A stretch of DNA of 10,214 bases from Naegleria gruberi (Eukaryota): the NCBI GenBank assembly GCA_000004985.1, contig GG739011.1, one strand, 5' to 3'. Below, piece after piece: positions 1 to 10,214 of this stretch. Both the position numbers and the translations under genes were made by a program. The number at the start of each line of letters is the position of its first letter. The first letter of the stretch is position 1. The notes beneath the pieces were generated by a model. That model was not told the DNA's origin, searched no databases, and worked only from the letters and a program-made list of their open reading frames with translations.

Positions 1-1
1 G

Positions 2-919
2 ATCTGCATATAAATATTTGATACAATTTACAACACCATAGTATACATATTGGTCCTGTTCAGTATCATTTTCATCAATTATTGGTTGTTGAGTTTTGAA
101 ATATTTACATCTGGTTTGAATTTGATCGTATGAAAGACATTCTTGACCACATAATTTCAGTATTTCAGTTGTATAATTGTATTGTTCTTTTGTAAACTGT
201 TTGGATTTCAACATCATGAAACTATGCCATTCTAATTCATTAGCGAATGGAGCAAACTTATTTGAAGGATCAGTTACTTTGTATGGGTTGTTGACAGAAA
301 AATTTTCTAAAACTAAATCTTCAATATCTTCATAAGGATTGACATCTTTCAAATTGATATCAGTATCATTTTGAATTTGTGAGATTTTCCACTTAATATC
401 TGTTAGCTCTGTATTTTTATCAGTTGGTGTCCATGTTGATTCAAAACCTCCACACTCCAATGTATCATTTTGAGGAGTAATGACATGCTGTAAAGATGTA
501 TTTGTAGAGGAGCTGAGCTTTACTGGTTTTTCTGGTTTAGATAAACATAATCTCTTTAACGGTTGATGTTCTATCGCGCTCTTTGTGTTGGTTTGATGTT
601 TAAAATTGATATGATCGACATATTCCTCCATTGTGGTGTAATGTTTATCACAACACACTTTTGGAAACTTGATGGAATGTTCTTTTGTAATATGTTTCAA
701 CAACGTTTCAGATTTGACACAACTATAATCACATAAACAACATCCAAGTTTTTCCTTAGTAAAATTTTTACACTCAGAGTTTTCACAGTTACATTTAATT
801 TGAATCTTGAATTTTGCACTTGAAATTGGTTGGTAAAATACTGTGTGTAAAGATTTCTTGCAAGAATCACAGCGTCTTTCAAAATAGATACCTTGTTCCT
901 TGTTATTTTGTAAAGACAT
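2..919 (-). CDS. Cys/His-rich protein with two tandem C2H2-type zinc fingers; 3'-partial, C-terminus lies beyond window start
   Basis: Hand translation of the minus strand from ATG (plus 919-917) to position 2 gives 306 codons with no stop in ~70% AT DNA: MSLQNNKEQGIYFERRCDSCKKSLHTVFYQPISSAKFKIQIKCNCENSECKNFTKEKLGCCLCDYSCVKSETLLKHITKEHSIKFPKVCCDKHYTTMEEYVDHINFKHQTNTKSAIEHQPLKRLCLSKPEKPVKLSSSTNTSLQHVITPQNDTLECGGFESTWTPTDKNTELTDIKWKISQIQNDTDINLKDVNPYEDIEDLVLENFSVNNPYKVTDPSNKFAPFANELEWHSFMMLKSKQFTKEQYNYTTEILKLCGQECLSYDQIQTRCKYFKTQQPIIDENDTEQDQYVYYGVVNCIKYLYAD. Finger 1 (plus 677..742) is C-x2-C-x12-H-x4-H (CCLCDYSCVKSETLLKHITKEH). Finger 2 (596..655) is CCDKHYTTMEEYVDHINFKH. Two further clusters, C-x2-C and C-x-C-x4-C, lie upstream. 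The start has an A-rich context (gaaaaaaaATGtc). Caveat: the same frame stays open upstream through 997 into the mask, so the true start could be further 5'. Confidence 0.7.
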   Translation of the reverse strand, partial: MSLQNNKEQGIYFERRCDSCKKSLHTVFYQPISSAKFKIQIKCNCENSECKNFTKEKLGCCLCDYSCVKSETLLKHITKEHSIKFPKVCCDKHYTTMEEYVDHINFKHQTNTKSAIEHQPLKRLCLSKPEKPVKLSSSTNTSLQHVITPQNDTLECGGFESTWTPTDKNTELTDIKWKISQIQNDTDINLKDVNPYEDIEDLVLENFSVNNPYKVTDPSNKFAPFANELEWHSFMMLKSKQFTKEQYNYTTEILKLCGQECLSYDQIQTRCKYFKTQQPIIDENDTEQDQYVYYGVVNCIKYLYAD

Positions 920-977
920 TTTTTTTCGTCTAAAAACTGGCTTTCGACTGAAAATTCGAATCAAAAAAAAACAATAA
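920..977. promoter_or_regulatory. 58-bp divergent intergenic region between the minus-strand ATG (919) and the plus-strand ATG (978); putative bidirectional promoter / 5'UTRs
   Basis: Position only: it is flanked by two oppositely oriented start codons and is A/T-rich with poly-A/poly-T runs (ttttttcgtctaaaaactggctttcgactgaaaattcgaatcaaaaaaaaacaataa). I recognise no specific motif in it. Confidence 0.3.
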
Positions 978-984
978 ATGCCAG
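978..984 (+). CDS. Putative mini first exon (ATG CCA G) followed by a consensus 5' splice donor; rest of gene masked
   Basis: The sequence aataaATGccagGTAAGTa has an ATG with A at -3, and the seven nucleotides ATGCCAG run straight into an exact 9/9 match to the MAG|GTRAGT donor consensus (CAG|GTAAGT, donor GT at 985-986). Everything downstream is N. Confidence 0.3.
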
Positions 985-997
985 GTAAGTACTTCCA

Positions 998-2479
998 NNN
1001 NNNNNNNNNNNNNNNNNNNNNNNNNNNNNNNNNNNNNNNNNNNNNNNNNNNNNNNNNNNNNNNNNNNNNNNNNNNNNNNNNNNNNNNNNNNNNNNNNNNN
1101 NNNNNNNNNNNNNNNNNNNNNNNNNNNNNNNNNNNNNNNNNNNNNNNNNNNNNNNNNNNNNNNNNNNNNNNNNNNNNNNNNNNNNNNNNNNNNNNNNNNN
1201 NNNNNNNNNNNNNNNNNNNNNNNNNNNNNNNNNNNNNNNNNNNNNNNNNNNNNNNNNNNNNNNNNNNNNNNNNNNNNNNNNNNNNNNNNNNNNNNNNNNN
1301 NNNNNNNNNNNNNNNNNNNNNNNNNNNNNNNNNNNNNNNNNNNNNNNNNNNNNNNNNNNNNNNNNNNNNNNNNNNNNNNNNNNNNNNNNNNNNNNNNNNN
1401 NNNNNNNNNNNNNNNNNNNNNNNNNNNNNNNNNNNNNNNNNNNNNNNNNNNNNNNNNNNNNNNNNNNNNNNNNNNNNNNNNNNNNNNNNNNNNNNNNNNN
1501 NNNNNNNNNNNNNNNNNNNNNNNNNNNNNNNNNNNNNNNNNNNNNNNNNNNNNNNNNNNNNNNNNNNNNNNNNNNNNNNNNNNNNNNNNNNNNNNNNNNN
1601 NNNNNNNNNNNNNNNNNNNNNNNNNNNNNNNNNNNNNNNNNNNNNNNNNNNNNNNNNNNNNNNNNNNNNNNNNNNNNNNNNNNNNNNNNNNNNNNNNNNN
1701 NNNNNNNNNNNNNNNNNNNNNNNNNNNNNNNNNNNNNNNNNNNNNNNNNNNNNNNNNNNNNNNNNNNNNNNNNNNNNNNNNNNNNNNNNNNNNNNNNNNN
1801 NNNNNNNNNNNNNNNNNNNNNNNNNNNNNNNNNNNNNNNNNNNNNNNNNNNNNNNNNNNNNNNNNNNNNNNNNNNNNNNNNNNNNNNNNNNNNNNNNNNN
1901 NNNNNNNNNNNNNNNNNNNNNNNNNNNNNNNNNNNNNNNNNNNNNNNNNNNNNNNNNNNNNNNNNNNNNNNNNNNNNNNNNNNNNNNNNNNNNNNNNNNN
2001 NNNNNNNNNNNNNNNNNNNNNNNNNNNNNNNNNNNNNNNNNNNNNNNNNNNNNNNNNNNNNNNNNNNNNNNNNNNNNNNNNNNNNNNNNNNNNNNNNNNN
2101 NNNNNNNNNNNNNNNNNNNNNNNNNNNNNNNNNNNNNNNNNNNNNNNNNNNNNNNNNNNNNNNNNNNNNNNNNNNNNNNNNNNNNNNNNNNNNNNNNNNN
2201 NNNNNNNNNNNNNNNNNNNNNNNNNNNNNNNNNNNNNNNNNNNNNNNNNNNNNNNNNNNNNNNNNNNNNNNNNNNNNNNNNNNNNNNNNNNNNNNNNNNN
2301 NNNNNNNNNNNNNNNNNNNNNNNNNNNNNNNNNNNNNNNNNNNNNNNNNNNNNNNNNNNNNNNNNNNNNNNNNNNNNNNNNNNNNNNNNNNNNNNNNNNN
2401 NNNNNNNNNNNNNNNNNNNNNNNNNNNNNNNNNNNNNNNNNNNNNNNNNNNNNNNNNNNNNNNNNNNNNNNNNNNNNNN
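998..2479. other. Run of 1482 N (masked/unknown bases)
   Basis: Literal n characters. No content can be inferred. ORF-track entries spanning it are artifacts. Confidence 1.
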
Positions 2480-3517
2480 AATCCAACAAGTAATAGAAAA
2501 TTAAATAATTTTACATTTGATTTTAATTCATTTCCATATTTAAAATATTTATTTCTTGATATTACCTATATTTATACATTGGAATCAATTAGTAATGTAT
2601 TAAATTCAAATAATATTTCAAAATTACAAGAATTTGGATTTGGAACTAATAGAAAATTTATTGAAAAATTACAATTTAATTCTAGTGAAAATTTAAAAAA
2701 TTTAAAAAAATTATTTTTAAATAGAACCGAAATGATGACAAATATAGATAATCTTCCTTCATTAGAATTATTATATATAGATGAATATGAAAAAAAGTTT
2801 TATTCCACTGCAAACTATTCAAAACCATGGAATTTAGCATCTAATGTGAAAATGCCATCTCTAAAATATTTACATTTAAATCTTATAAATGAAACTCATT
2901 TACCTGATAGATTAAATGTGGAATCATTTAAAAATATTAAATATTTTTATTTTGAATCTCAATATAATATTGATTTATCAGAATTGAGTAAATTAAATTT
3001 AGAAATATTAATTCTTAAAATTTCTTTAAAATATAACAAGAATATATTTCATCACATTTCTAAAATATCAACCTTGAGAGATTTAACATTTCGTAAGCCT
3101 ATTTGGGATATTGATTTGAAATTACTTTGTAAATTACCAAATTTAGAATATCTTAATATTAGATTGGAATTTAAAAGTGAAATATCTTTTACTTTTAATT
3201 CACTAACTACACTCTCAATTTATTCAGATAATTTGAAAGGATTAAACTTTTTTCAAATATCAAATTTACCAAAATTGAAAACTTTAATAATTCGTAATGA
3301 TTTGGATAATAACCATACGTGGTGGTTGCAACCATTATTTCCAAATTTACAAATAATTAAAGCAAGTTATACCAGTTTTGGAATATTTTTAGCATCTCAA
3401 TATAATGATGGTATGAATTTTGGTGAGTATGAGGTTTCACAAAGAACAGCAACTCATTTACAAAATGAATATGTATGGCTCTTTCCAAAAAAATTTATTT
3501 TTGGCAATGCTCAATAA
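2480..3517 (+). CDS. Leucine-rich repeat (LRR) protein; 5'-partial, reading frame enters from the masked region
   Basis: The frame is open from the first unmasked base (2480, NPTSNRKLNNFTFDFNSFPYLKYLFLDITYIYTLESISNV...) to TAA at 3515-3517, 345 codons. The track's start at 2579 is a TTG, not a real start; the first in-frame ATG is near 2730. Repeated LxxLxLxxN-type segments include NLKNLKKLFLNRT, NLPSLELLYIDEY, MPSLKYLHLNLINET, LSKLNLEILILKISL, LPNLEYLNIRLEF, LTTLSIYSDNLKGLNFFQISNLPKLKTLIIRND and FPNLQIIKASY. GC is very low (about 15-28% in hand-counted 60-nt samples), with codon bias toward TTA, AAT, AAA and ATT. Confidence 0.7.
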   Translation, partial: NPTSNRKLNNFTFDFNSFPYLKYLFLDITYIYTLESISNVLNSNNISKLQEFGFGTNRKFIEKLQFNSSENLKNLKKLFLNRTEMMTNIDNLPSLELLYIDEYEKKFYSTANYSKPWNLASNVKMPSLKYLHLNLINETHLPDRLNVESFKNIKYFYFESQYNIDLSELSKLNLEILILKISLKYNKNIFHHISKISTLRDLTFRKPIWDIDLKLLCKLPNLEYLNIRLEFKSEISFTFNSLTTLSIYSDNLKGLNFFQISNLPKLKTLIIRNDLDNNHTWWLQPLFPNLQIIKASYTSFGIFLASQYNDGMNFGEYEVSQRTATHLQNEYVWLFPKKFIFGNAQ

Positions 3518-3555
3518 TGTTTGTAAACATTTCATATTATGGAATGCTAAGGAGA

Positions 3556-6500
3556 NNNNNNNNNNNNNNNNNNNNNNNNNNNNNNNNNNNNNNNNNNNNN
3601 NNNNNNNNNNNNNNNNNNNNNNNNNNNNNNNNNNNNNNNNNNNNNNNNNNNNNNNNNNNNNNNNNNNNNNNNNNNNNNNNNNNNNNNNNNNNNNNNNNNN
3701 NNNNNNNNNNNNNNNNNNNNNNNNNNNNNNNNNNNNNNNNNNNNNNNNNNNNNNNNNNNNNNNNNNNNNNNNNNNNNNNNNNNNNNNNNNNNNNNNNNNN
3801 NNNNNNNNNNNNNNNNNNNNNNNNNNNNNNNNNNNNNNNNNNNNNNNNNNNNNNNNNNNNNNNNNNNNNNNNNNNNNNNNNNNNNNNNNNNNNNNNNNNN
3901 NNNNNNNNNNNNNNNNNNNNNNNNNNNNNNNNNNNNNNNNNNNNNNNNNNNNNNNNNNNNNNNNNNNNNNNNNNNNNNNNNNNNNNNNNNNNNNNNNNNN
4001 NNNNNNNNNNNNNNNNNNNNNNNNNNNNNNNNNNNNNNNNNNNNNNNNNNNNNNNNNNNNNNNNNNNNNNNNNNNNNNNNNNNNNNNNNNNNNNNNNNNN
4101 NNNNNNNNNNNNNNNNNNNNNNNNNNNNNNNNNNNNNNNNNNNNNNNNNNNNNNNNNNNNNNNNNNNNNNNNNNNNNNNNNNNNNNNNNNNNNNNNNNNN
4201 NNNNNNNNNNNNNNNNNNNNNNNNNNNNNNNNNNNNNNNNNNNNNNNNNNNNNNNNNNNNNNNNNNNNNNNNNNNNNNNNNNNNNNNNNNNNNNNNNNNN
4301 NNNNNNNNNNNNNNNNNNNNNNNNNNNNNNNNNNNNNNNNNNNNNNNNNNNNNNNNNNNNNNNNNNNNNNNNNNNNNNNNNNNNNNNNNNNNNNNNNNNN
4401 NNNNNNNNNNNNNNNNNNNNNNNNNNNNNNNNNNNNNNNNNNNNNNNNNNNNNNNNNNNNNNNNNNNNNNNNNNNNNNNNNNNNNNNNNNNNNNNNNNNN
4501 NNNNNNNNNNNNNNNNNNNNNNNNNNNNNNNNNNNNNNNNNNNNNNNNNNNNNNNNNNNNNNNNNNNNNNNNNNNNNNNNNNNNNNNNNNNNNNNNNNNN
4601 NNNNNNNNNNNNNNNNNNNNNNNNNNNNNNNNNNNNNNNNNNNNNNNNNNNNNNNNNNNNNNNNNNNNNNNNNNNNNNNNNNNNNNNNNNNNNNNNNNNN
4701 NNNNNNNNNNNNNNNNNNNNNNNNNNNNNNNNNNNNNNNNNNNNNNNNNNNNNNNNNNNNNNNNNNNNNNNNNNNNNNNNNNNNNNNNNNNNNNNNNNNN
4801 NNNNNNNNNNNNNNNNNNNNNNNNNNNNNNNNNNNNNNNNNNNNNNNNNNNNNNNNNNNNNNNNNNNNNNNNNNNNNNNNNNNNNNNNNNNNNNNNNNNN
4901 NNNNNNNNNNNNNNNNNNNNNNNNNNNNNNNNNNNNNNNNNNNNNNNNNNNNNNNNNNNNNNNNNNNNNNNNNNNNNNNNNNNNNNNNNNNNNNNNNNNN
5001 NNNNNNNNNNNNNNNNNNNNNNNNNNNNNNNNNNNNNNNNNNNNNNNNNNNNNNNNNNNNNNNNNNNNNNNNNNNNNNNNNNNNNNNNNNNNNNNNNNNN
5101 NNNNNNNNNNNNNNNNNNNNNNNNNNNNNNNNNNNNNNNNNNNNNNNNNNNNNNNNNNNNNNNNNNNNNNNNNNNNNNNNNNNNNNNNNNNNNNNNNNNN
5201 NNNNNNNNNNNNNNNNNNNNNNNNNNNNNNNNNNNNNNNNNNNNNNNNNNNNNNNNNNNNNNNNNNNNNNNNNNNNNNNNNNNNNNNNNNNNNNNNNNNN
5301 NNNNNNNNNNNNNNNNNNNNNNNNNNNNNNNNNNNNNNNNNNNNNNNNNNNNNNNNNNNNNNNNNNNNNNNNNNNNNNNNNNNNNNNNNNNNNNNNNNNN
5401 NNNNNNNNNNNNNNNNNNNNNNNNNNNNNNNNNNNNNNNNNNNNNNNNNNNNNNNNNNNNNNNNNNNNNNNNNNNNNNNNNNNNNNNNNNNNNNNNNNNN
5501 NNNNNNNNNNNNNNNNNNNNNNNNNNNNNNNNNNNNNNNNNNNNNNNNNNNNNNNNNNNNNNNNNNNNNNNNNNNNNNNNNNNNNNNNNNNNNNNNNNNN
5601 NNNNNNNNNNNNNNNNNNNNNNNNNNNNNNNNNNNNNNNNNNNNNNNNNNNNNNNNNNNNNNNNNNNNNNNNNNNNNNNNNNNNNNNNNNNNNNNNNNNN
5701 NNNNNNNNNNNNNNNNNNNNNNNNNNNNNNNNNNNNNNNNNNNNNNNNNNNNNNNNNNNNNNNNNNNNNNNNNNNNNNNNNNNNNNNNNNNNNNNNNNNN
5801 NNNNNNNNNNNNNNNNNNNNNNNNNNNNNNNNNNNNNNNNNNNNNNNNNNNNNNNNNNNNNNNNNNNNNNNNNNNNNNNNNNNNNNNNNNNNNNNNNNNN
5901 NNNNNNNNNNNNNNNNNNNNNNNNNNNNNNNNNNNNNNNNNNNNNNNNNNNNNNNNNNNNNNNNNNNNNNNNNNNNNNNNNNNNNNNNNNNNNNNNNNNN
6001 NNNNNNNNNNNNNNNNNNNNNNNNNNNNNNNNNNNNNNNNNNNNNNNNNNNNNNNNNNNNNNNNNNNNNNNNNNNNNNNNNNNNNNNNNNNNNNNNNNNN
6101 NNNNNNNNNNNNNNNNNNNNNNNNNNNNNNNNNNNNNNNNNNNNNNNNNNNNNNNNNNNNNNNNNNNNNNNNNNNNNNNNNNNNNNNNNNNNNNNNNNNN
6201 NNNNNNNNNNNNNNNNNNNNNNNNNNNNNNNNNNNNNNNNNNNNNNNNNNNNNNNNNNNNNNNNNNNNNNNNNNNNNNNNNNNNNNNNNNNNNNNNNNNN
6301 NNNNNNNNNNNNNNNNNNNNNNNNNNNNNNNNNNNNNNNNNNNNNNNNNNNNNNNNNNNNNNNNNNNNNNNNNNNNNNNNNNNNNNNNNNNNNNNNNNNN
6401 NNNNNNNNNNNNNNNNNNNNNNNNNNNNNNNNNNNNNNNNNNNNNNNNNNNNNNNNNNNNNNNNNNNNNNNNNNNNNNNNNNNNNNNNNNNNNNNNNNNN

Positions 6501-8735
6501 NNNNNNNNNNNNNNNNNNNNNNNNNNNNNNNNNNNNNNNNNNNNNNNNNNNNNNNNNNNNNNNNNNNNNNNNNNNNNNNNNNNNNNNNNNNNNNNNNNNN
6601 NNNNNNNNNNNNNNNNNNNNNNNNNNNNNNNNNNNNNNNNNNNNNNNNNNNNNNNNNNNNNNNNNNNNNNNNNNNNNNNNNNNNNNNNNNNNNNNNNNNN
6701 NNNNNNNNNNNNNNNNNNNNNNNNNNNNNNNNNNNNNNNNNNNNNNNNNNNNNNNNNNNNNNNNNNNNNNNNNNNNNNNNNNNNNNNNNNNNNNNNNNNN
6801 NNNNNNNNNNNNNNNNNNNNNNNNNNNNNNNNNNNNNNNNNNNNNNNNNNNNNNNNNNNNNNNNNNNNNNNNNNNNNNNNNNNNNNNNNNNNNNNNNNNN
6901 NNNNNNNNNNNNNNNNNNNNNNNNNNNNNNNNNNNNNNNNNNNNNNNNNNNNNNNNNNNNNNNNNNNNNNNNNNNNNNNNNNNNNNNNNNNNNNNNNNNN
7001 NNNNNNNNNNNNNNNNNNNNNNNNNNNNNNNNNNNNNNNNNNNNNNNNNNNNNNNNNNNNNNNNNNNNNNNNNNNNNNNNNNNNNNNNNNNNNNNNNNNN
7101 NNNNNNNNNNNNNNNNNNNNNNNNNNNNNNNNNNNNNNNNNNNNNNNNNNNNNNNNNNNNNNNNNNNNNNNNNNNNNNNNNNNNNNNNNNNNNNNNNNNN
7201 NNNNNNNNNNNNNNNNNNNNNNNNNNNNNNNNNNNNNNNNNNNNNNNNNNNNNNNNNNNNNNNNNNNNNNNNNNNNNNNNNNNNNNNNNNNNNNNNNNNN
7301 NNNNNNNNNNNNNNNNNNNNNNNNNNNNNNNNNNNNNNNNNNNNNNNNNNNNNNNNNNNNNNNNNNNNNNNNNNNNNNNNNNNNNNNNNNNNNNNNNNNN
7401 NNNNNNNNNNNNNNNNNNNNNNNNNNNNNNNNNNNNNNNNNNNNNNNNNNNNNNNNNNNNNNNNNNNNNNNNNNNNNNNNNNNNNNNNNNNNNNNNNNNN
7501 NNNNNNNNNNNNNNNNNNNNNNNNNNNNNNNNNNNNNNNNNNNNNNNNNNNNNNNNNNNNNNNNNNNNNNNNNNNNNNNNNNNNNNNNNNNNNNNNNNNN
7601 NNNNNNNNNNNNNNNNNNNNNNNNNNNNNNNNNNNNNNNNNNNNNNNNNNNNNNNNNNNNNNNNNNNNNNNNNNNNNNNNNNNNNNNNNNNNNNNNNNNN
7701 NNNNNNNNNNNNNNNNNNNNNNNNNNNNNNNNNNNNNNNNNNNNNNNNNNNNNNNNNNNNNNNNNNNNNNNNNNNNNNNNNNNNNNNNNNNNNNNNNNNN
7801 NNNNNNNNNNNNNNNNNNNNNNNNNNNNNNNNNNNNNNNNNNNNNNNNNNNNNNNNNNNNNNNNNNNNNNNNNNNNNNNNNNNNNNNNNNNNNNNNNNNN
7901 NNNNNNNNNNNNNNNNNNNNNNNNNNNNNNNNNNNNNNNNNNNNNNNNNNNNNNNNNNNNNNNNNNNNNNNNNNNNNNNNNNNNNNNNNNNNNNNNNNNN
8001 NNNNNNNNNNNNNNNNNNNNNNNNNNNNNNNNNNNNNNNNNNNNNNNNNNNNNNNNNNNNNNNNNNNNNNNNNNNNNNNNNNNNNNNNNNNNNNNNNNNN
8101 NNNNNNNNNNNNNNNNNNNNNNNNNNNNNNNNNNNNNNNNNNNNNNNNNNNNNNNNNNNNNNNNNNNNNNNNNNNNNNNNNNNNNNNNNNNNNNNNNNNN
8201 NNNNNNNNNNNNNNNNNNNNNNNNNNNNNNNNNNNNNNNNNNNNNNNNNNNNNNNNNNNNNNNNNNNNNNNNNNNNNNNNNNNNNNNNNNNNNNNNNNNN
8301 NNNNNNNNNNNNNNNNNNNNNNNNNNNNNNNNNNNNNNNNNNNNNNNNNNNNNNNNNNNNNNNNNNNNNNNNNNNNNNNNNNNNNNNNNNNNNNNNNNNN
8401 NNNNNNNNNNNNNNNNNNNNNNNNNNNNNNNNNNNNNNNNNNNNNNNNNNNNNNNNNNNNNNNNNNNNNNNNNNNNNNNNNNNNNNNNNNNNNNNNNNNN
8501 NNNNNNNNNNNNNNNNNNNNNNNNNNNNNNNNNNNNNNNNNNNNNNNNNNNNNNNNNNNNNNNNNNNNNNNNNNNNNNNNNNNNNNNNNNNNNNNNNNNN
8601 NNNNNNNNNNNNNNNNNNNNNNNNNNNNNNNNNNNNNNNNNNNNNNNNNNNNNNNNNNNNNNNNNNNNNNNNNNNNNNNNNNNNNNNNNNNNNNNNNNNN
8701 NNNNNNNNNNNNNNNNNNNNNNNNNNNNNNNNNNN
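3556..8735. other. Run of 5180 N (masked/unknown bases)
   Basis: Literal n characters. It lies directly upstream of the carbamate kinase fragment, so it must contain at least the N-terminal part of that gene. Confidence 1.
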
Positions 8736-8741
8736 AAATGA

Positions 8742-9416
8742 CAAGGCTTCCAACATCCTAACAAGCCTGTTGGTAAATTCCTCTCTCCTGAAGAGTATGA
8801 ATCATCAAAGAAGGACAAACAAATGATGACTTTCCACAAGTTTGATGAAGGCTACAGAAGAGTTGTTCCTTCTCCAACACCTATTGATATCATTGAATTG
8901 GACACTATCAAAACACTCTTCAATGAAGGACACTTGGTTATTTGTAATGGAGGTGGAGGTATCCCTGTTGTTAAAAGCCGAGATGAAGTTGGTGGTGATG
9001 AGAAAGCAATGATTGGTAAAAAGCAAGCACAAAGAAAGAACCACCTGATGGGCATAGAAGCAGTCATTGACAAGGATAGATCCAGTTCCCTGCTAGCACA
9101 AAAGCTTACTGTCGATTACTTTATCATTCTCACCAAAGTGGATCATGTCTACTTGAATTACTCTTCAAAAAAGGAGGAGAAGAAGCCTATTACTTCAATG
9201 GATGTTGAAACTGCTCGACAATACATTACGGAAGGATGCTTTGAAGAAGGTACCATGCTACCAAAGATTGAATCAGCCACTGAATTTGTTACCAAGACTG
9301 GAAAACCTGCTCTCATCACAAGCTTGGACAATTTCATCAGAGAAACTTCCAAGCAAGGAGATGTTAACAATGAAATCAAACTACGTCATATTGAAGGTAC
9401 TTGGATTGTTCCATAA
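8742..9416 (+). CDS. arcC: Carbamate kinase (amino-acid kinase family), C-terminal ~225 residues; 5' part masked
   Basis: Translation from 8742 is QGFQHPNKPVGKFLSPEEYESSKKDKQMMTFHKFDEGYRRVVPSPTPIDIIELDTIKTLFNEGHLVICNGGGGIPVVKSRDEVGGDEKAMIGKKQAQRKNHLMGIEAVIDKDRSSSLLAQKLTVDYFIILTKVDHVYLNYSSKKEEKKPITSMDVETARQYITEGCFEEGTMLPKIESATEFVTKTGKPALITSLDNFIRETSKQGDVNNEIKLRHIEGTWIVP*. It aligns block for block with the carbamate kinases I recall from memory (Enterococcus and Giardia): FxNPTKPIGxF, GRGWRxVVPSPxPIDIxE, GGGGIPVV (8949..8972), GVEAVIDKD, LVILTxVDxVxINY, GSMxPKIEAA (MLPKIESA around 9255..9278), AIITSL and GTVV. The in-frame ATG at 8823 is internal (a conserved CK block lies upstream of it). There is an in-frame TGA at 8739-8741 flush with the mask edge. 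Confidence 0.85.
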   Translation, partial: QGFQHPNKPVGKFLSPEEYESSKKDKQMMTFHKFDEGYRRVVPSPTPIDIIELDTIKTLFNEGHLVICNGGGGIPVVKSRDEVGGDEKAMIGKKQAQRKNHLMGIEAVIDKDRSSSLLAQKLTVDYFIILTKVDHVYLNYSSKKEEKKPITSMDVETARQYITEGCFEEGTMLPKIESATEFVTKTGKPALITSLDNFIRETSKQGDVNNEIKLRHIEGTWIVP

Positions 9417-9457
9417 ATCTAAAAATTCTATCATGATCCAACAACATTCACAACATT

Positions 9458-9463
9458 AATAAA
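9458..9463 (+). terminator. Candidate polyadenylation signal AATAAA for the carbamate kinase transcript
   Basis: The hexamer aataaa lies 42 nt downstream of the TAA stop (9414-9416) and is followed by a T/GT-rich stretch (ggtaattattcgtgatattt). The stop codon itself also forms TAAA (9414-9417), the short poly(A) signal type described in parabasalids. Confidence 0.35.
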
Positions 9464-9544
9464 CAATAGTGGTAATTATTCGTGATATTTAAATCAAAAC
9501 AAGAAAAAAATTCCCTTCATGGATGTTGAACTTGGTGTTGCTTT

Positions 9545-9578
9545 TATTTTTTAAAAAAATTAAAAAAAATTAAAAATG
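9545..9578. repeat. A/T low-complexity tract with short direct repeats (aaaaaaatt x2, aaaaat)
   Basis: The sequence tttattttttaaaaaaattaaaaaaaattaaaaatgtaaaa lies in the intergenic region downstream of the carbamate kinase gene. Confidence 0.5.
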
Positions 9579-9793
9579 TAAAATCTTGAAGAAGAGATTA
9601 GAGATCAAACAACAGTTGGTTGGTTAGCAGGATGAAATATTGTTGTGCTTTGCTTTTTTGAAAAGGATCTCCATTACCTGAAATTTCATCAATATTTGCT
9701 TACTATGTATGTATCATACAGACCAAAAAAATTGAAGGCTTGGTATCCTTGATATTTCCATCAAGCTTTCAGTAAATATTGGAGGTAGATATT

Positions 9794-9988
9794 ATGTTTA
9801 TCGGATCAGTAATTCAAGGGTTTGAATTGGTCATTAAGATAATACAATTCATACAAGACAGGAGAAATTCTTGCAAAAAGCTACCGAATCGAAGCTTCCG
9901 TATGTTGTTCAATGATCAAAAGGCTTTTCAGCACAGCACATTTTCCACCAAACCTTCCTCTTTTCACAAGTTTCATGAAACCTTGTAA
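9794..9988 (+). CDS. Small hypothetical ORF (64 aa), possibly non-coding
   Basis: ATG at 9794 to TAA at 9986-9988 translates to MFIGSVIQGFELVIKIIQFIQDRRNSCKKLPNRSFRMLFNDQKAFQHSTFSTKPSSFHKFHETL. A GGAGGT lies 7 nt upstream (9781-9786). I recognise no similarity, and an open frame of this length is not unusual in ~35-40% GC DNA. Confidence 0.15.
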   Translation: MFIGSVIQGFELVIKIIQFIQDRRNSCKKLPNRSFRMLFNDQKAFQHSTFSTKPSSFHKFHETL

Positions 9989-10196
9989 TAGTTGGTACAA
10001 AACTATAGTAATTTGTCCAAGATGGTCAAGTAATTACAGAAAGGGCAGGTAGTATCCTGAACGATTTACTAAATTTTGGATGGTTGTTGACTTGTATGTA
10101 CAGCCGTTGAGGGTATTTGATGGATACATTATTTTACTGCAATTACCGAGGGTTGATTGTTACAGGCAAAACACATCACAAAAAAACATCAACACA

Positions 10197-10214
10197 ATGG
10201 CAACTGACACATTA
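10197..10214 (+). CDS. Possible start of a gene running off the window end (MATDTL...)
   Basis: The context acaATGGca is Kozak-like (A at -3, G at +4) and is preceded by an A/C-rich leader (cacaaaaaaacatcaacaca). Only 6 codons are visible. Confidence 0.15.

Follow-up and report, generated by a model that had tools for sequence, protein, structure and literature searches.

A sharp compositional contrast between three neighbouring genes on a gap-rich Naegleria gruberi scaffold is probably gene-specific variation and not recent foreign DNA

A complete scaffold of 10,214 nucleotides in the genome assembly of Naegleria gruberi strain NEG-M (GCA_000004985.1, contig GG739011.1; hereafter the window) carries parts of three genes that differ sharply in GC content and codon choice: a C2H2-like zinc-finger (ZnF) gene, an unannotated LRR-like ORF and a carbamate kinase (CK). 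This raises the question of whether the contrast records a recent transfer of the CK gene from a bacterium, a chimeric or contaminated assembly, or genes of different expression or codon class residing in one genome. On balance, the evidence below favours gene-specific variation of the kind found inside AT-rich protist genomes, and not recent foreign DNA.

Real bases account for 3,552 of the 10,214 positions, and 65% of the scaffold is N. The two N runs leave little real DNA, so the comparison is one between three short islands (997, 1,076 and 1,479 bp), each equivalent to a few Sanger reads. Scanning the window for Rfam families and tRNA genes gave no match. The features are collected in Table 1; the sequence-only reading was given for positions 2480 to 9416, a span that contains the LRR-like ORF and CK, whereas the ZnF gene lies outside it on the minus strand.

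Table 1. Features of the window, with coordinates counted from its first nucleotide
Feature	Position	Strand	Remarks
C2H2-like zinc-finger gene, 5' part	2-919	-	306 codons, ATG at 917-919; runs off window start
Non-coding	920-997		GC 0.308; contains possible first exon and donor of divergent gene
Possible 7-nt first exon, ATGCCAG	978-984	+	Divergent gene; GTAAGT donor at 985-990
Assembly gap	998-2479		1,482 N
Orphan LRR-like ORF, unannotated	2480-3517	+	Open from gap edge; TAA at 3515-3517
Assembly gap	3556-8735		5,180 N
CK, C-terminal part	8742-9416	+	224 codons and stop; 100% identical to EFC35822.1 / XP_002668566.1
CK motif RRVVPSP	8856-8876	+	
CK motif GGGGIPV	8949-8969	+	
CK private insertion, 19 aa, DEVGGDEKAMIGKKQAQRK	8982-9038	+	Not shared by any bacterial, archaeal or Giardia CK in the alignment
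CK motif AVIDKD	9060-9077	+	
CK motif GTMLPKIE	9249-9272	+	
CK private insertion, 12 aa, RETSKQGDVNNE	9339-9374	+	Near CK C-terminus
No convincing gene	9417-10196		~780 nt downstream of CK, GC 0.318, A/T tracts; local non-coding background

The ZnF ORF contains a C-x2-C-x12-H-x4-H motif at 677-742 (residues 60-81), followed by a second C/H-rich stretch. A search against Pfam yielded no zf-C2H2 match, and FOXP-CC was the sole family returned, at 17 bits and below its cut-off of 28.9. The N. gruberi protein P0121, encoded on a different, 24,047-bp scaffold, is 99% identical to the ORF, and the first island is represented once more elsewhere in the N. gruberi assembly.

The LRR-like ORF is a true coding sequence, and the probability that its 345 codons would stay open by chance at its base composition is ~9e-16. 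Neither a self-match nor a homologue was found among 5.8 billion proteins, and an exhaustive HMMER search of 1.84 billion protein representatives produced four weak matches only, all to unnamed sequences that resemble LRR proteins when judged by their repeat pattern. Relatives were likewise absent from IMG/VR viral contigs and JGI metagenome contigs, and both Pfam matches, LRR_14 (20.7 bits, cut-off 40) and LRR_4 (20.2 bits, cut-off 27), were sub-threshold. A single-sequence AF2 model of low confidence (pLDDT 60, pTM 0.60) has strands at 97, 130, 155, 176, 199, 224, 244 and 268, and every PDB match listed for it by Foldseek (50 of 370 at E<=10) is an LRR protein, at low TM scores of 0.3-0.4. 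On this model, the protein is predicted to be a solenoid with one β-strand per ~22-28-residue repeat. The regularly spaced strands are its likeness to LRR solenoid proteins of the internalin, F-box-LRR and TLR types, from which it differs in missing the Pfam LRR cut-offs and in having no detectable orthologue or paralogue. A mitochondrial origin of this 21%-GC island was considered briefly; the absence of protein matches speaks weakly against it.

GenBank annotates the CK fragment as 'predicted protein, partial' only. Its sequence identifies it as a genuine carbamate kinase (arcC, EC 2.7.2.2). It matches the AA_kinase family PF00696 with 63.8 bits (cut-off 24.9, E 2.6e-17) and TIGR00746 (arcC) with an E value of 3.6e-56; arcC is clearly its best family, with argB, pyrH and proB trailing at E>1e-5, and all six PDB matches (102-119 bits) are carbamate kinases. 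Its score of 190.4 bits is below the TIGR00746 equivalog cut-off of 358; the fragment covers ~60% of the length of a CK, the rest of the protein lying in the gap. With other carbamate kinases, including those of Giardia, Trichomonas and Harpagon, it shares the AA-kinase fold family and the motifs RRVVPSP, GGGGIPV, AVIDKD and G(S/T)MxPK(I/V)E, the last of these with Ser replaced by Thr relative to GSMxPK. It differs from them in comprising the C-terminal two-thirds or so, in its three private insertions and in showing no affinity to the Giardia enzyme in a neighbour-joining (NJ) tree.

Aligned to CKs of ~310 residues, the fragment starts near residue 115-125 and runs to the C-terminus. In an intact gene, the missing N-terminal ~120 codons, where the GGNA and HGNGPQVG motifs would be expected, have to lie within the 5,180-N gap. 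Homology extends in frame 0 to position 8742 and perhaps two residues (N-D) further in the +1 frame, with an in-frame TGA (8739-8741) 3 nt inside the island that marks a stop or a possible indel at the island edge. An intron acceptor or a frameshift was considered here; a read-end error or a pseudogene may explain the edge, two residues being too few to choose between them. The private insertions measure 19, 2 and 12 residues. The 19-residue insertion was considered as a missed intron and rejected: the reading frame continues through it without a stop, it lacks a canonical donor, and its GC content of 0.41 resembles that of the rest of the gene. Environmental relatives of CK with the same insertions were searched for and none were found.

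The compositional contrast between the genes was confirmed. GC and GC3s are 0.305 and 0.224 for the ZnF gene (60-nt windows 0.23-0.38), 0.200 and 0.085 for the LRR-like ORF (2480-3421; windows 0.08-0.28) and 0.396 and 0.33 for CK (8742-9413; windows 0.35-0.48). Within the LRR-like ORF, GC climbs from about position 3300, with a GTGAGT at 3424, and overall GC is 0.20-0.21. All three pairwise Fisher tests on GC3s are significant (LRR versus CK, 1.6e-12; ZnF versus LRR, 1.8e-6; ZnF versus CK, 0.0085). The DNA beside the genes does not follow this pattern: non-coding GC is 0.308, 0.306 and 0.318 next to the ZnF gene, the LRR-like ORF and CK respectively (chi-square p=0.95; pooled 0.315), in a local sample of 993 nt in which the 134-nt LRR 'flank' (0.306) is perhaps partly coding.

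An isochore-like regional mutational bias, in which the genes occupy domains that differ in background GC, would account for the GC3 order LRR < ZnF < CK, which is mirrored by the GC of the islands. The flanks are, however, uniform at ~31.5% GC, and each of the two extreme genes departs from its own, with the LRR coding sequence lower (p=0.007) and the CK coding sequence higher (p=0.002). Regional GC domains are therefore rejected as extremely improbable, and the contrast is gene-specific.

Published estimates of genome GC for N. gruberi (33% or 35%) and of its coding fraction (57.8%), together with the pooled flank value, imply a mean coding GC of 0.34-0.375; this host baseline is thus an indirect one, built from the genome mean, the coding fraction and the 993 nt of flanking non-coding sequence. 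Relative to it, CK is close and the LRR-like ORF lies 13-17 points below, which makes the orphan LRR gene the probable GC outlier with respect to the host and puts CK near the coding average. The proposal that CK is the outlier thus fails for GC, whereas it stands for the pattern of codon choice, since relative synonymous codon usage (RSCU) correlates at r=0.76 between the ZnF gene and the LRR-like ORF and at 0.34-0.39 between CK and either neighbour. The GC3s of the LRR-like ORF (0.085) is also far below the GC of the adjacent non-coding DNA (~0.31), and is beyond what simple mutational bias would give.

Amino-acid composition accounts for about half of the GC gap between the LRR-like ORF and CK. 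CK is rich in Gly, Ala, Arg and Pro (19%), and 45% of the LRR protein consists of Phe, Tyr, Met, Ile, Asn and Lys; when GC is predicted from amino-acid composition with pooled codon usage, the values are 0.298 for ZnF, 0.245 for LRR and 0.339 for CK. The remaining contrast is one of synonymous choice. TTA is absent from CK, as had been reported, although its Leu codons number 14 (TTG 4, CTC 4, CTA 3, CTG 2, CTT 1) and not about 12. In the LRR-like ORF, described as using TTA almost exclusively, TTA is in fact a majority codon (33 of 51, or 34 of 53 if counted to the stop), and in the ZnF gene it makes up 12 of 22. CK accordingly differs in TTA use from both the ZnF gene (p=7e-4) and the LRR-like ORF (p=8e-6), between which there is no difference (p=0.44). 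C-ending codons occupy 20 of 43 two-fold pyrimidine positions in CK, 19 of 94 in ZnF and 5 of 100 in LRR, the last being devoid of C-ending Phe, Tyr, Ile or Asp codons. CK also uses AAG for 14 of its 24 Lys residues, prefers T at four-fold sites and keeps CAA, GAA and AGA.

Other preferences are common to the three genes, namely a low frequency of G at four-fold sites (0.04-0.06), AGA for Arg (0.62-0.75) and CAA for Gln (0.84-1.0), a combination present in none of 16 GC3-matched bacterial CKs. The effective number of codons (ENC) is 6-11 units below its GC3 expectation in all three genes and furthest below in CK (43 versus 54). In the sister species N. clarki, low GC3 and translational selection in highly expressed genes have been described; the N. 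clarki paper finds that highly expressed genes often have low ENC, and gives the ENC-GC3 plot of N. gruberi as supplementary Fig. S4. The genes of the window resemble these codon classes of low-GC protists (N. clarki, Willaertia) in low GC3 and a wide ENC spread, with the difference that the LRR GC3s of 0.085 probably sits at the extreme low tail.

Gene-specific variation, the reading favoured here, would have two components. The first, shown by the composition-based predictions, is amino-acid makeup, a conserved α/β enzyme (CK) being set against the LRR protein. The second would be synonymous codon class, of which the pattern is observed and the cause is inferred: the ZnF and LRR genes would track an AT mutational bias (TTA and A/T-ending codons), LRR in extreme form, and the avoidance of TTA by CK and its preference for NNC two-fold codons and AAG would match what translational selection is expected to produce in a better-expressed gene of such a genome. 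Among the explanations already raised from the sequence, that of different expression or codon classes in one genome fits best, given the homogeneous flanks, their closeness to the published genome GC and the shared four-fold-G avoidance, AGA and CAA. All three islands would then belong to the N. gruberi nuclear genome, and we consider this reading as a whole somewhat more probable than not. When RSCU was compared with 77 prokaryotic CK genes, 16 matched CK at least as well as its neighbours do, low-GC Firmicutes among them, and codon usage alone therefore cannot separate a host high-expression class from foreign origin.

The sequences most similar to CK come from prokaryotes (Thermotogota, Bacillota, Acidobacteriota, archaea and an uncultured bacterium of 42% GC), and none is close: the best non-self match among 5.8 billion proteins has 46-48% identity (BLASTP), the best match in 185,000 prokaryote species genomes has 36-47% identity with hits scattered over phyla, and identity to one uncultured bacterium is 51% over aligned columns. 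The best 120 matches listed, about a quarter of which carry names and none of which exceeds 48% identity, include no other Naegleria, heterolobosean or other eukaryote that is named or eukprot-tagged. No CK from other Naegleria being among these matches, the gene appears patchy within the genus; its apparent absence from relatives depends on database content and would be equally compatible with loss in other lineages. In a crude NJ tree of the fragment alone, built on 191 columns with one other eukaryote for comparison, CK sits on a long branch, its sister grouping lacks support (53% bootstrap) and it nests in no donor clade; the Giardia CK is among the sequences farthest from it.

Lateral acquisition of CK from a prokaryotic source, separate from the origin of the CKs of other eukaryotes and with the codon pattern as its remnant, finds support in these prokaryotic affinities, in the distance to Giardia, in the polyphyletic and patchy distribution for which eukaryotic CKs are known, and in an RSCU pattern unlike that of the neighbours. 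Similarly isolated eukaryotic CKs of prokaryotic affinity (Reticulomyxa, Preaxostyla and diatom clades; Novak et al. 2016) also form long branches among prokaryotes, the difference being that the N. gruberi placement derives from a fragment and a distance tree and identifies no donor clade. Against a foreign source for the present codon pattern stand the low identity (at most ~50%), the private insertions and the long unsupported branch, as well as GC and GC3 values close to host and local non-coding levels and the synonymous preferences shared with the neighbouring genes. Any transfer would be old and ameliorated, and so would not explain the present composition. We consider this explanation unlikely, and the recent bacterial transfer suggested from the sequence is not supported, with identity no higher than 46-51%, three private insertions and no supported donor clade. 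An old independent acquisition may have occurred; whatever its ultimate origin, CK has probably been resident for a long time in an AT-rich eukaryotic genome.

Mis-assembly or contaminant DNA, under which the islands would not be neighbours and the contrast would reflect different sources, has to be weighed on a scaffold that consists of short islands and N runs. The LRR-like ORF is unannotated and no relatives of it were found, no relative of CK was found in other Naegleria, the first island is assembled elsewhere too, and the CK island has a stop or possible indel at its edge. These observations are offset by non-coding GC that is host-like and indistinguishable between the three islands (p=0.95), by the synonymous preferences common to the three genes and by the codon correlation of the ZnF and LRR genes. 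Moreover, the LRR island sits between the other two, so that a chimera would need two independent false links; CK, with its private insertions and 780 nt of gene-poor, AT-rich flank, is unlike bacterial contamination, and the LRR-like ORF is unmatched by any sequenced AT-rich organism. A false join or contamination is, on this evidence, quite unlikely.

The LRR island could alternatively be foreign by itself and sit in a region that is hard to assemble, its much AT-richer donor being, for instance, a Mimiviridae-like giant virus that became endogenised or a symbiont of high AT content. Its coding GC and GC3s are well below both the adjacent DNA and the host mean. Mimiviridae have been described as having the preferred codons of Naegleria 'but of larger magnitude', and the LRR-like ORF relates to the ZnF gene in the same way; gaps also lie on both sides of the island, and difficult parts of genomes are said to conceal endogenous viral elements. 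However, no relative was detected in IMG/VR, in the JGI metagenome contigs or among the protein representatives, a viral hallmark gene is absent from the window, and, according to the literature, N. gruberi assemblies have yielded no capsid genes of giant viruses. A fast-evolving, weakly expressed host gene would show an equal pattern, and a viral or symbiont source is decidedly improbable. Very improbable is the combined proposal that the scaffold is a hard-to-assemble acquired island, pairing a prokaryote-derived CK, independent of those of other eukaryotes (including the heterolobosean Harpagon), with an LRR gene from a giant virus or symbiont; if true, CK would complete an overlooked arginine dihydrolase pathway in an aerobic amoeba.

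Gene-specific variation as the preferred account carries a caution for the use of such regions. In an AT-rich protist, neighbouring genes that differ by 20 points in GC and make opposite Leu codon choices are not in themselves a sign of horizontal transfer. Here, half of the contrast is amino-acid composition and the supposed outlier is at the host average. The quality of the scaffold (65% gaps, an unannotated ORF and a truncated gene model) likewise makes it unfit for claims of synteny or horizontal transfer. The identity of the CK fragment has a bearing on metabolism whichever way its history is read. N. gruberi has been reported to have OTC and a homologue of ArcA (ADI), and its CK is unnamed in the main published survey of eukaryotic CKs and ADI-pathway enzymes. 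The fragment suggests that N. gruberi may encode ADI, OTC and CK, all three enzymes of the arginine dihydrolase pathway. If complete, this pathway would be anaerobic and ATP-yielding, and would fit the known facultatively anaerobic gene repertoire of N. gruberi.

The zinc-finger-like gene (ZnF), the leucine-rich-repeat-like ORF (LRR) and the carbamate kinase fragment (CK) differ strongly in composition and codon choice, as the sequence-only reading had claimed, both in leucine codons (see table) and in the codon-usage measure GC3s (pairwise Fisher p from 0.0085 to 1.6e-12). The preference of LRR for TTA is real, although "almost exclusively" slightly overstated a share of 64%, and CK does lack TTA, in 14 rather than about 12 leucine codons. 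ZnF lies outside the interval 2480-9416 to which the contrast had been assigned.

Features of the window, with base composition and leucine codon choice
Feature	Position	Strand	GC	GC3s	TTA/Leu	Remark
Island 1	1-997		0.306
ZnF	2-919	minus	0.305	0.224	12/22	306 codons, one canonical C2H2 motif
ATGCCAG then GTAAGT	978-990	plus
Island 2	2480-3555		0.213
LRR	2480-3517	plus	0.200	0.085	33/51	345 codons, open from gap edge
Island 3	8736-10214		0.353
CK	8742-9416	plus	0.396	0.33	0/14	C-terminal 224 codons of carbamate kinase
CK insertion, 19 residues	8982-9038					absent from bacterial, archaeal and Giardia CKs compared
CK insertion, 2 residues	NYSSKK site					absent from the same CKs
CK insertion, 12 residues	9339-9374					absent from the same CKs
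ATG	10197-10199					ORF 10197-10214

Which gene is the outlier depends on the yardstick. Non-coding GC next to the three genes is 0.308, 0.306 and 0.318, which is indistinguishable (p=0.95; pooled 0.315), and together with the published genome GC of 33% or 35% and a coding share of 57.8% of the genome, this implies a mean coding GC for the host of 0.34-0.375. CK lies 2-5 points over this mean, ZnF 4-7 points under it and LRR 13-17 points under it. GC is lower in the LRR coding sequence than in the DNA flanking it (p=0.007) and higher in the CK coding sequence than in the DNA flanking CK (p=0.002), so that the background is uniform and host-like, the contrast is gene-specific and the GC outlier is LRR, not CK as had been proposed. 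By pattern of codon choice within the window CK does stand apart, as RSCU correlates between ZnF and LRR with r=0.76, versus 0.39 for CK with ZnF and 0.34 for CK with LRR.

The window corresponds to one complete, small scaffold from the Sanger-based assembly of N. gruberi NEG-M. Its quality is low: 3,552 of 10,214 positions are real bases, in three islands each only about a few Sanger reads long, with 1,482 N between the first two and 5,180 N between the last two. The CK protein record is labelled "partial", so the large gap was already in the original record. Mis-scaffolding of islands from different sources, which could also yield neighbouring genes of unlike composition, is less likely, since flanking non-coding GC is uniform across islands, the three genes have synonymous preferences in common, and two wrong joins would be needed, as the LRR island lies between the other two. 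Independent evidence confirms that island 1 comes from N. gruberi: the ZnF ORF, which matches no curated family, is identical at 155 of 156 residues (99% amino-acid identity) to P0121, an N. gruberi predicted protein on a separate 24,047-bp scaffold. The assembly thus contains two versions of this locus, allelic or overlapping. In the P0121 gene model a splice after "TLEC" changes the reading frame, giving an odd C-terminus that corresponds to another reading frame of window positions ~60-125, whereas the ZnF ORF reads straight on, which suggests an allelic or overlapping scaffold combined with a doubtful intron call in the P0121 model. On the opposite strand, ATGCCAG (978-984) resembles a first exon of 7 nt and the GTAAGT behind it an intron donor; this putative gene lies head-to-head with the ZnF ATG (917-919), 58 nt apart, and would run into the first gap.

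When all three genes were assigned one pooled synonymous usage, amino-acid composition alone predicted a GC of 0.298 for ZnF, 0.245 for LRR and 0.339 for CK, so that protein composition accounts for about half of the 19-point gap between LRR and CK (FYMINK residues make up 45% of LRR, and GARP residues 19% of CK); the rest is synonymous choice. C-ending two-fold pyrimidine codons number 20/43 in CK, 19/94 in ZnF and 5/100 in LRR, while CK also uses AAG for 14 of 24 lysines, prefers T over A at four-fold sites and has an ENC of 43 versus 54 expected from GC3. Where the background is AT-rich, translational selection is usually recognised by a preference for NNC, AAG and T-ending four-fold codons. 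For N. clarki, the sister species, a low GC3 has been reported along with evidence of such selection, and supplementary Fig. S4 of the same codon paper plots ENC against GC3 for N. gruberi. G at four-fold sites is almost absent in all three genes (0.04-0.06) and all favour AGA and CAA, a combination, picked post hoc, that occurs in none of 16 GC3-matched prokaryotic CK genes. The best-supported explanation, towards which the evidence leans modestly against an indirect host baseline (genome GC, coding fraction and local non-coding DNA), is that the contrast would be ordinary gene-specific variation inside the N. gruberi genome, with amino-acid composition and codon-usage class as its components. 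Gene-to-gene variation of this kind is already known.

The LRR ORF, whose chance occurrence at its own base composition is ~9e-16, is an orphan gene of the assembly and is unannotated, as it has no self-match among 5.8 billion proteins. Among 1.84 billion representatives, searched exhaustively, just four matches turned up, all LRR and all marginal, and no relatives were found in viral or metagenome contigs. Pfam LRR models score below threshold; a low-confidence AF2 model predicts strands at regular spacing, and all 50 PDB matches listed for it by Foldseek are LRR proteins. Simple mutational bias does not predict a GC3s as far under the adjacent non-coding GC as that of LRR. A fast-evolving, weakly expressed host orphan is one possible account. 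Another is a more AT-rich donor: Mimiviridae are said to share the preferred codons of Naegleria, "but of larger magnitude", although capsid genes are not known from N. gruberi assemblies, and none of the tool results points to a foreign origin. A third is that the LRR flank may itself be partly coding. Within 3300-3555, GC climbs from ~0.20 to ~0.30 over the last ~40 codons of the ORF, and GTGAGT at 3424 is a possible intron donor, with the ORF open on to a TAA at 3515-3517.

CK matches the entry "predicted protein, partial [Naegleria gruberi]" (EFC35822.1 / XP_002668566.1) with 100% identity, scores above threshold for PF00696 with arcC as best NCBIfam model, finds only carbamate kinases in the PDB and conserves the C-terminal motifs. 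The GenBank model begins at 8796, leaving 18 homology-supported codons upstream unannotated. An in-frame TGA (8739-8741) lies 3 nt within the island, and the +1 frame beside it reads Asn-Asp, like the "..ND" before (Q/P)(G/A)F in bacterial CKs, which suggests a possible 1-nt indel at the contig edge from a read-end error, or a pseudogene. Near the scaffold end, an ATG preceded by an A-rich leader begins a reading frame that exits the scaffold; a further gene may start here.

A recent transfer of CK from a bacterium, one of the possibilities first raised, is not supported by its relatives. The top non-self match in 5.8 billion proteins has 46-48% identity (BLASTP), the closest ones in 185,000 prokaryote species genomes have 36-47% and are spread over Bacillota, Acidobacteriota, Chloroflexota, archaea and others, and a JGI metagenome scan found no close relative. 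The nearest by distance, P0083, from an uncultured bacterium, has 51% identity over aligned columns and shares the C-terminus "...GTWI"; it lies at 6001-6993 of a gene-dense, 42%-GC ENA metagenome scaffold (56 kb), beside RmuC, inositol monophosphatase and Zip transporter genes and outside any arc operon. A distance tree of 119 sequences (191 columns) places Naegleria CK on a long branch with a sole sister at 53% bootstrap, and Giardia CK among the sequences farthest away. Bacterial contamination is made less likely by the insertions private to CK and by the downstream stretch of 780 nt, AT-rich and poor in genes. An old, independent acquisition is possible, and eukaryotic CKs are known to be polyphyletic; such an event would not account for the present composition. 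Among the 120 matches listed, about a quarter of them named, no other Naegleria or eukaryote CK was recognisable.

In Novak et al. 2016, the main survey of arginine-deiminase-pathway enzymes in eukaryotes, N. gruberi is mentioned for OTC alone and does not appear in the list of 16 protists that have all three enzymes; an ArcA homologue is listed for N. gruberi NEG-M in PMC9667741. The overlooked CK is a minor addition; if both reports are right, it would be the third enzyme and the set of N. gruberi would be complete.
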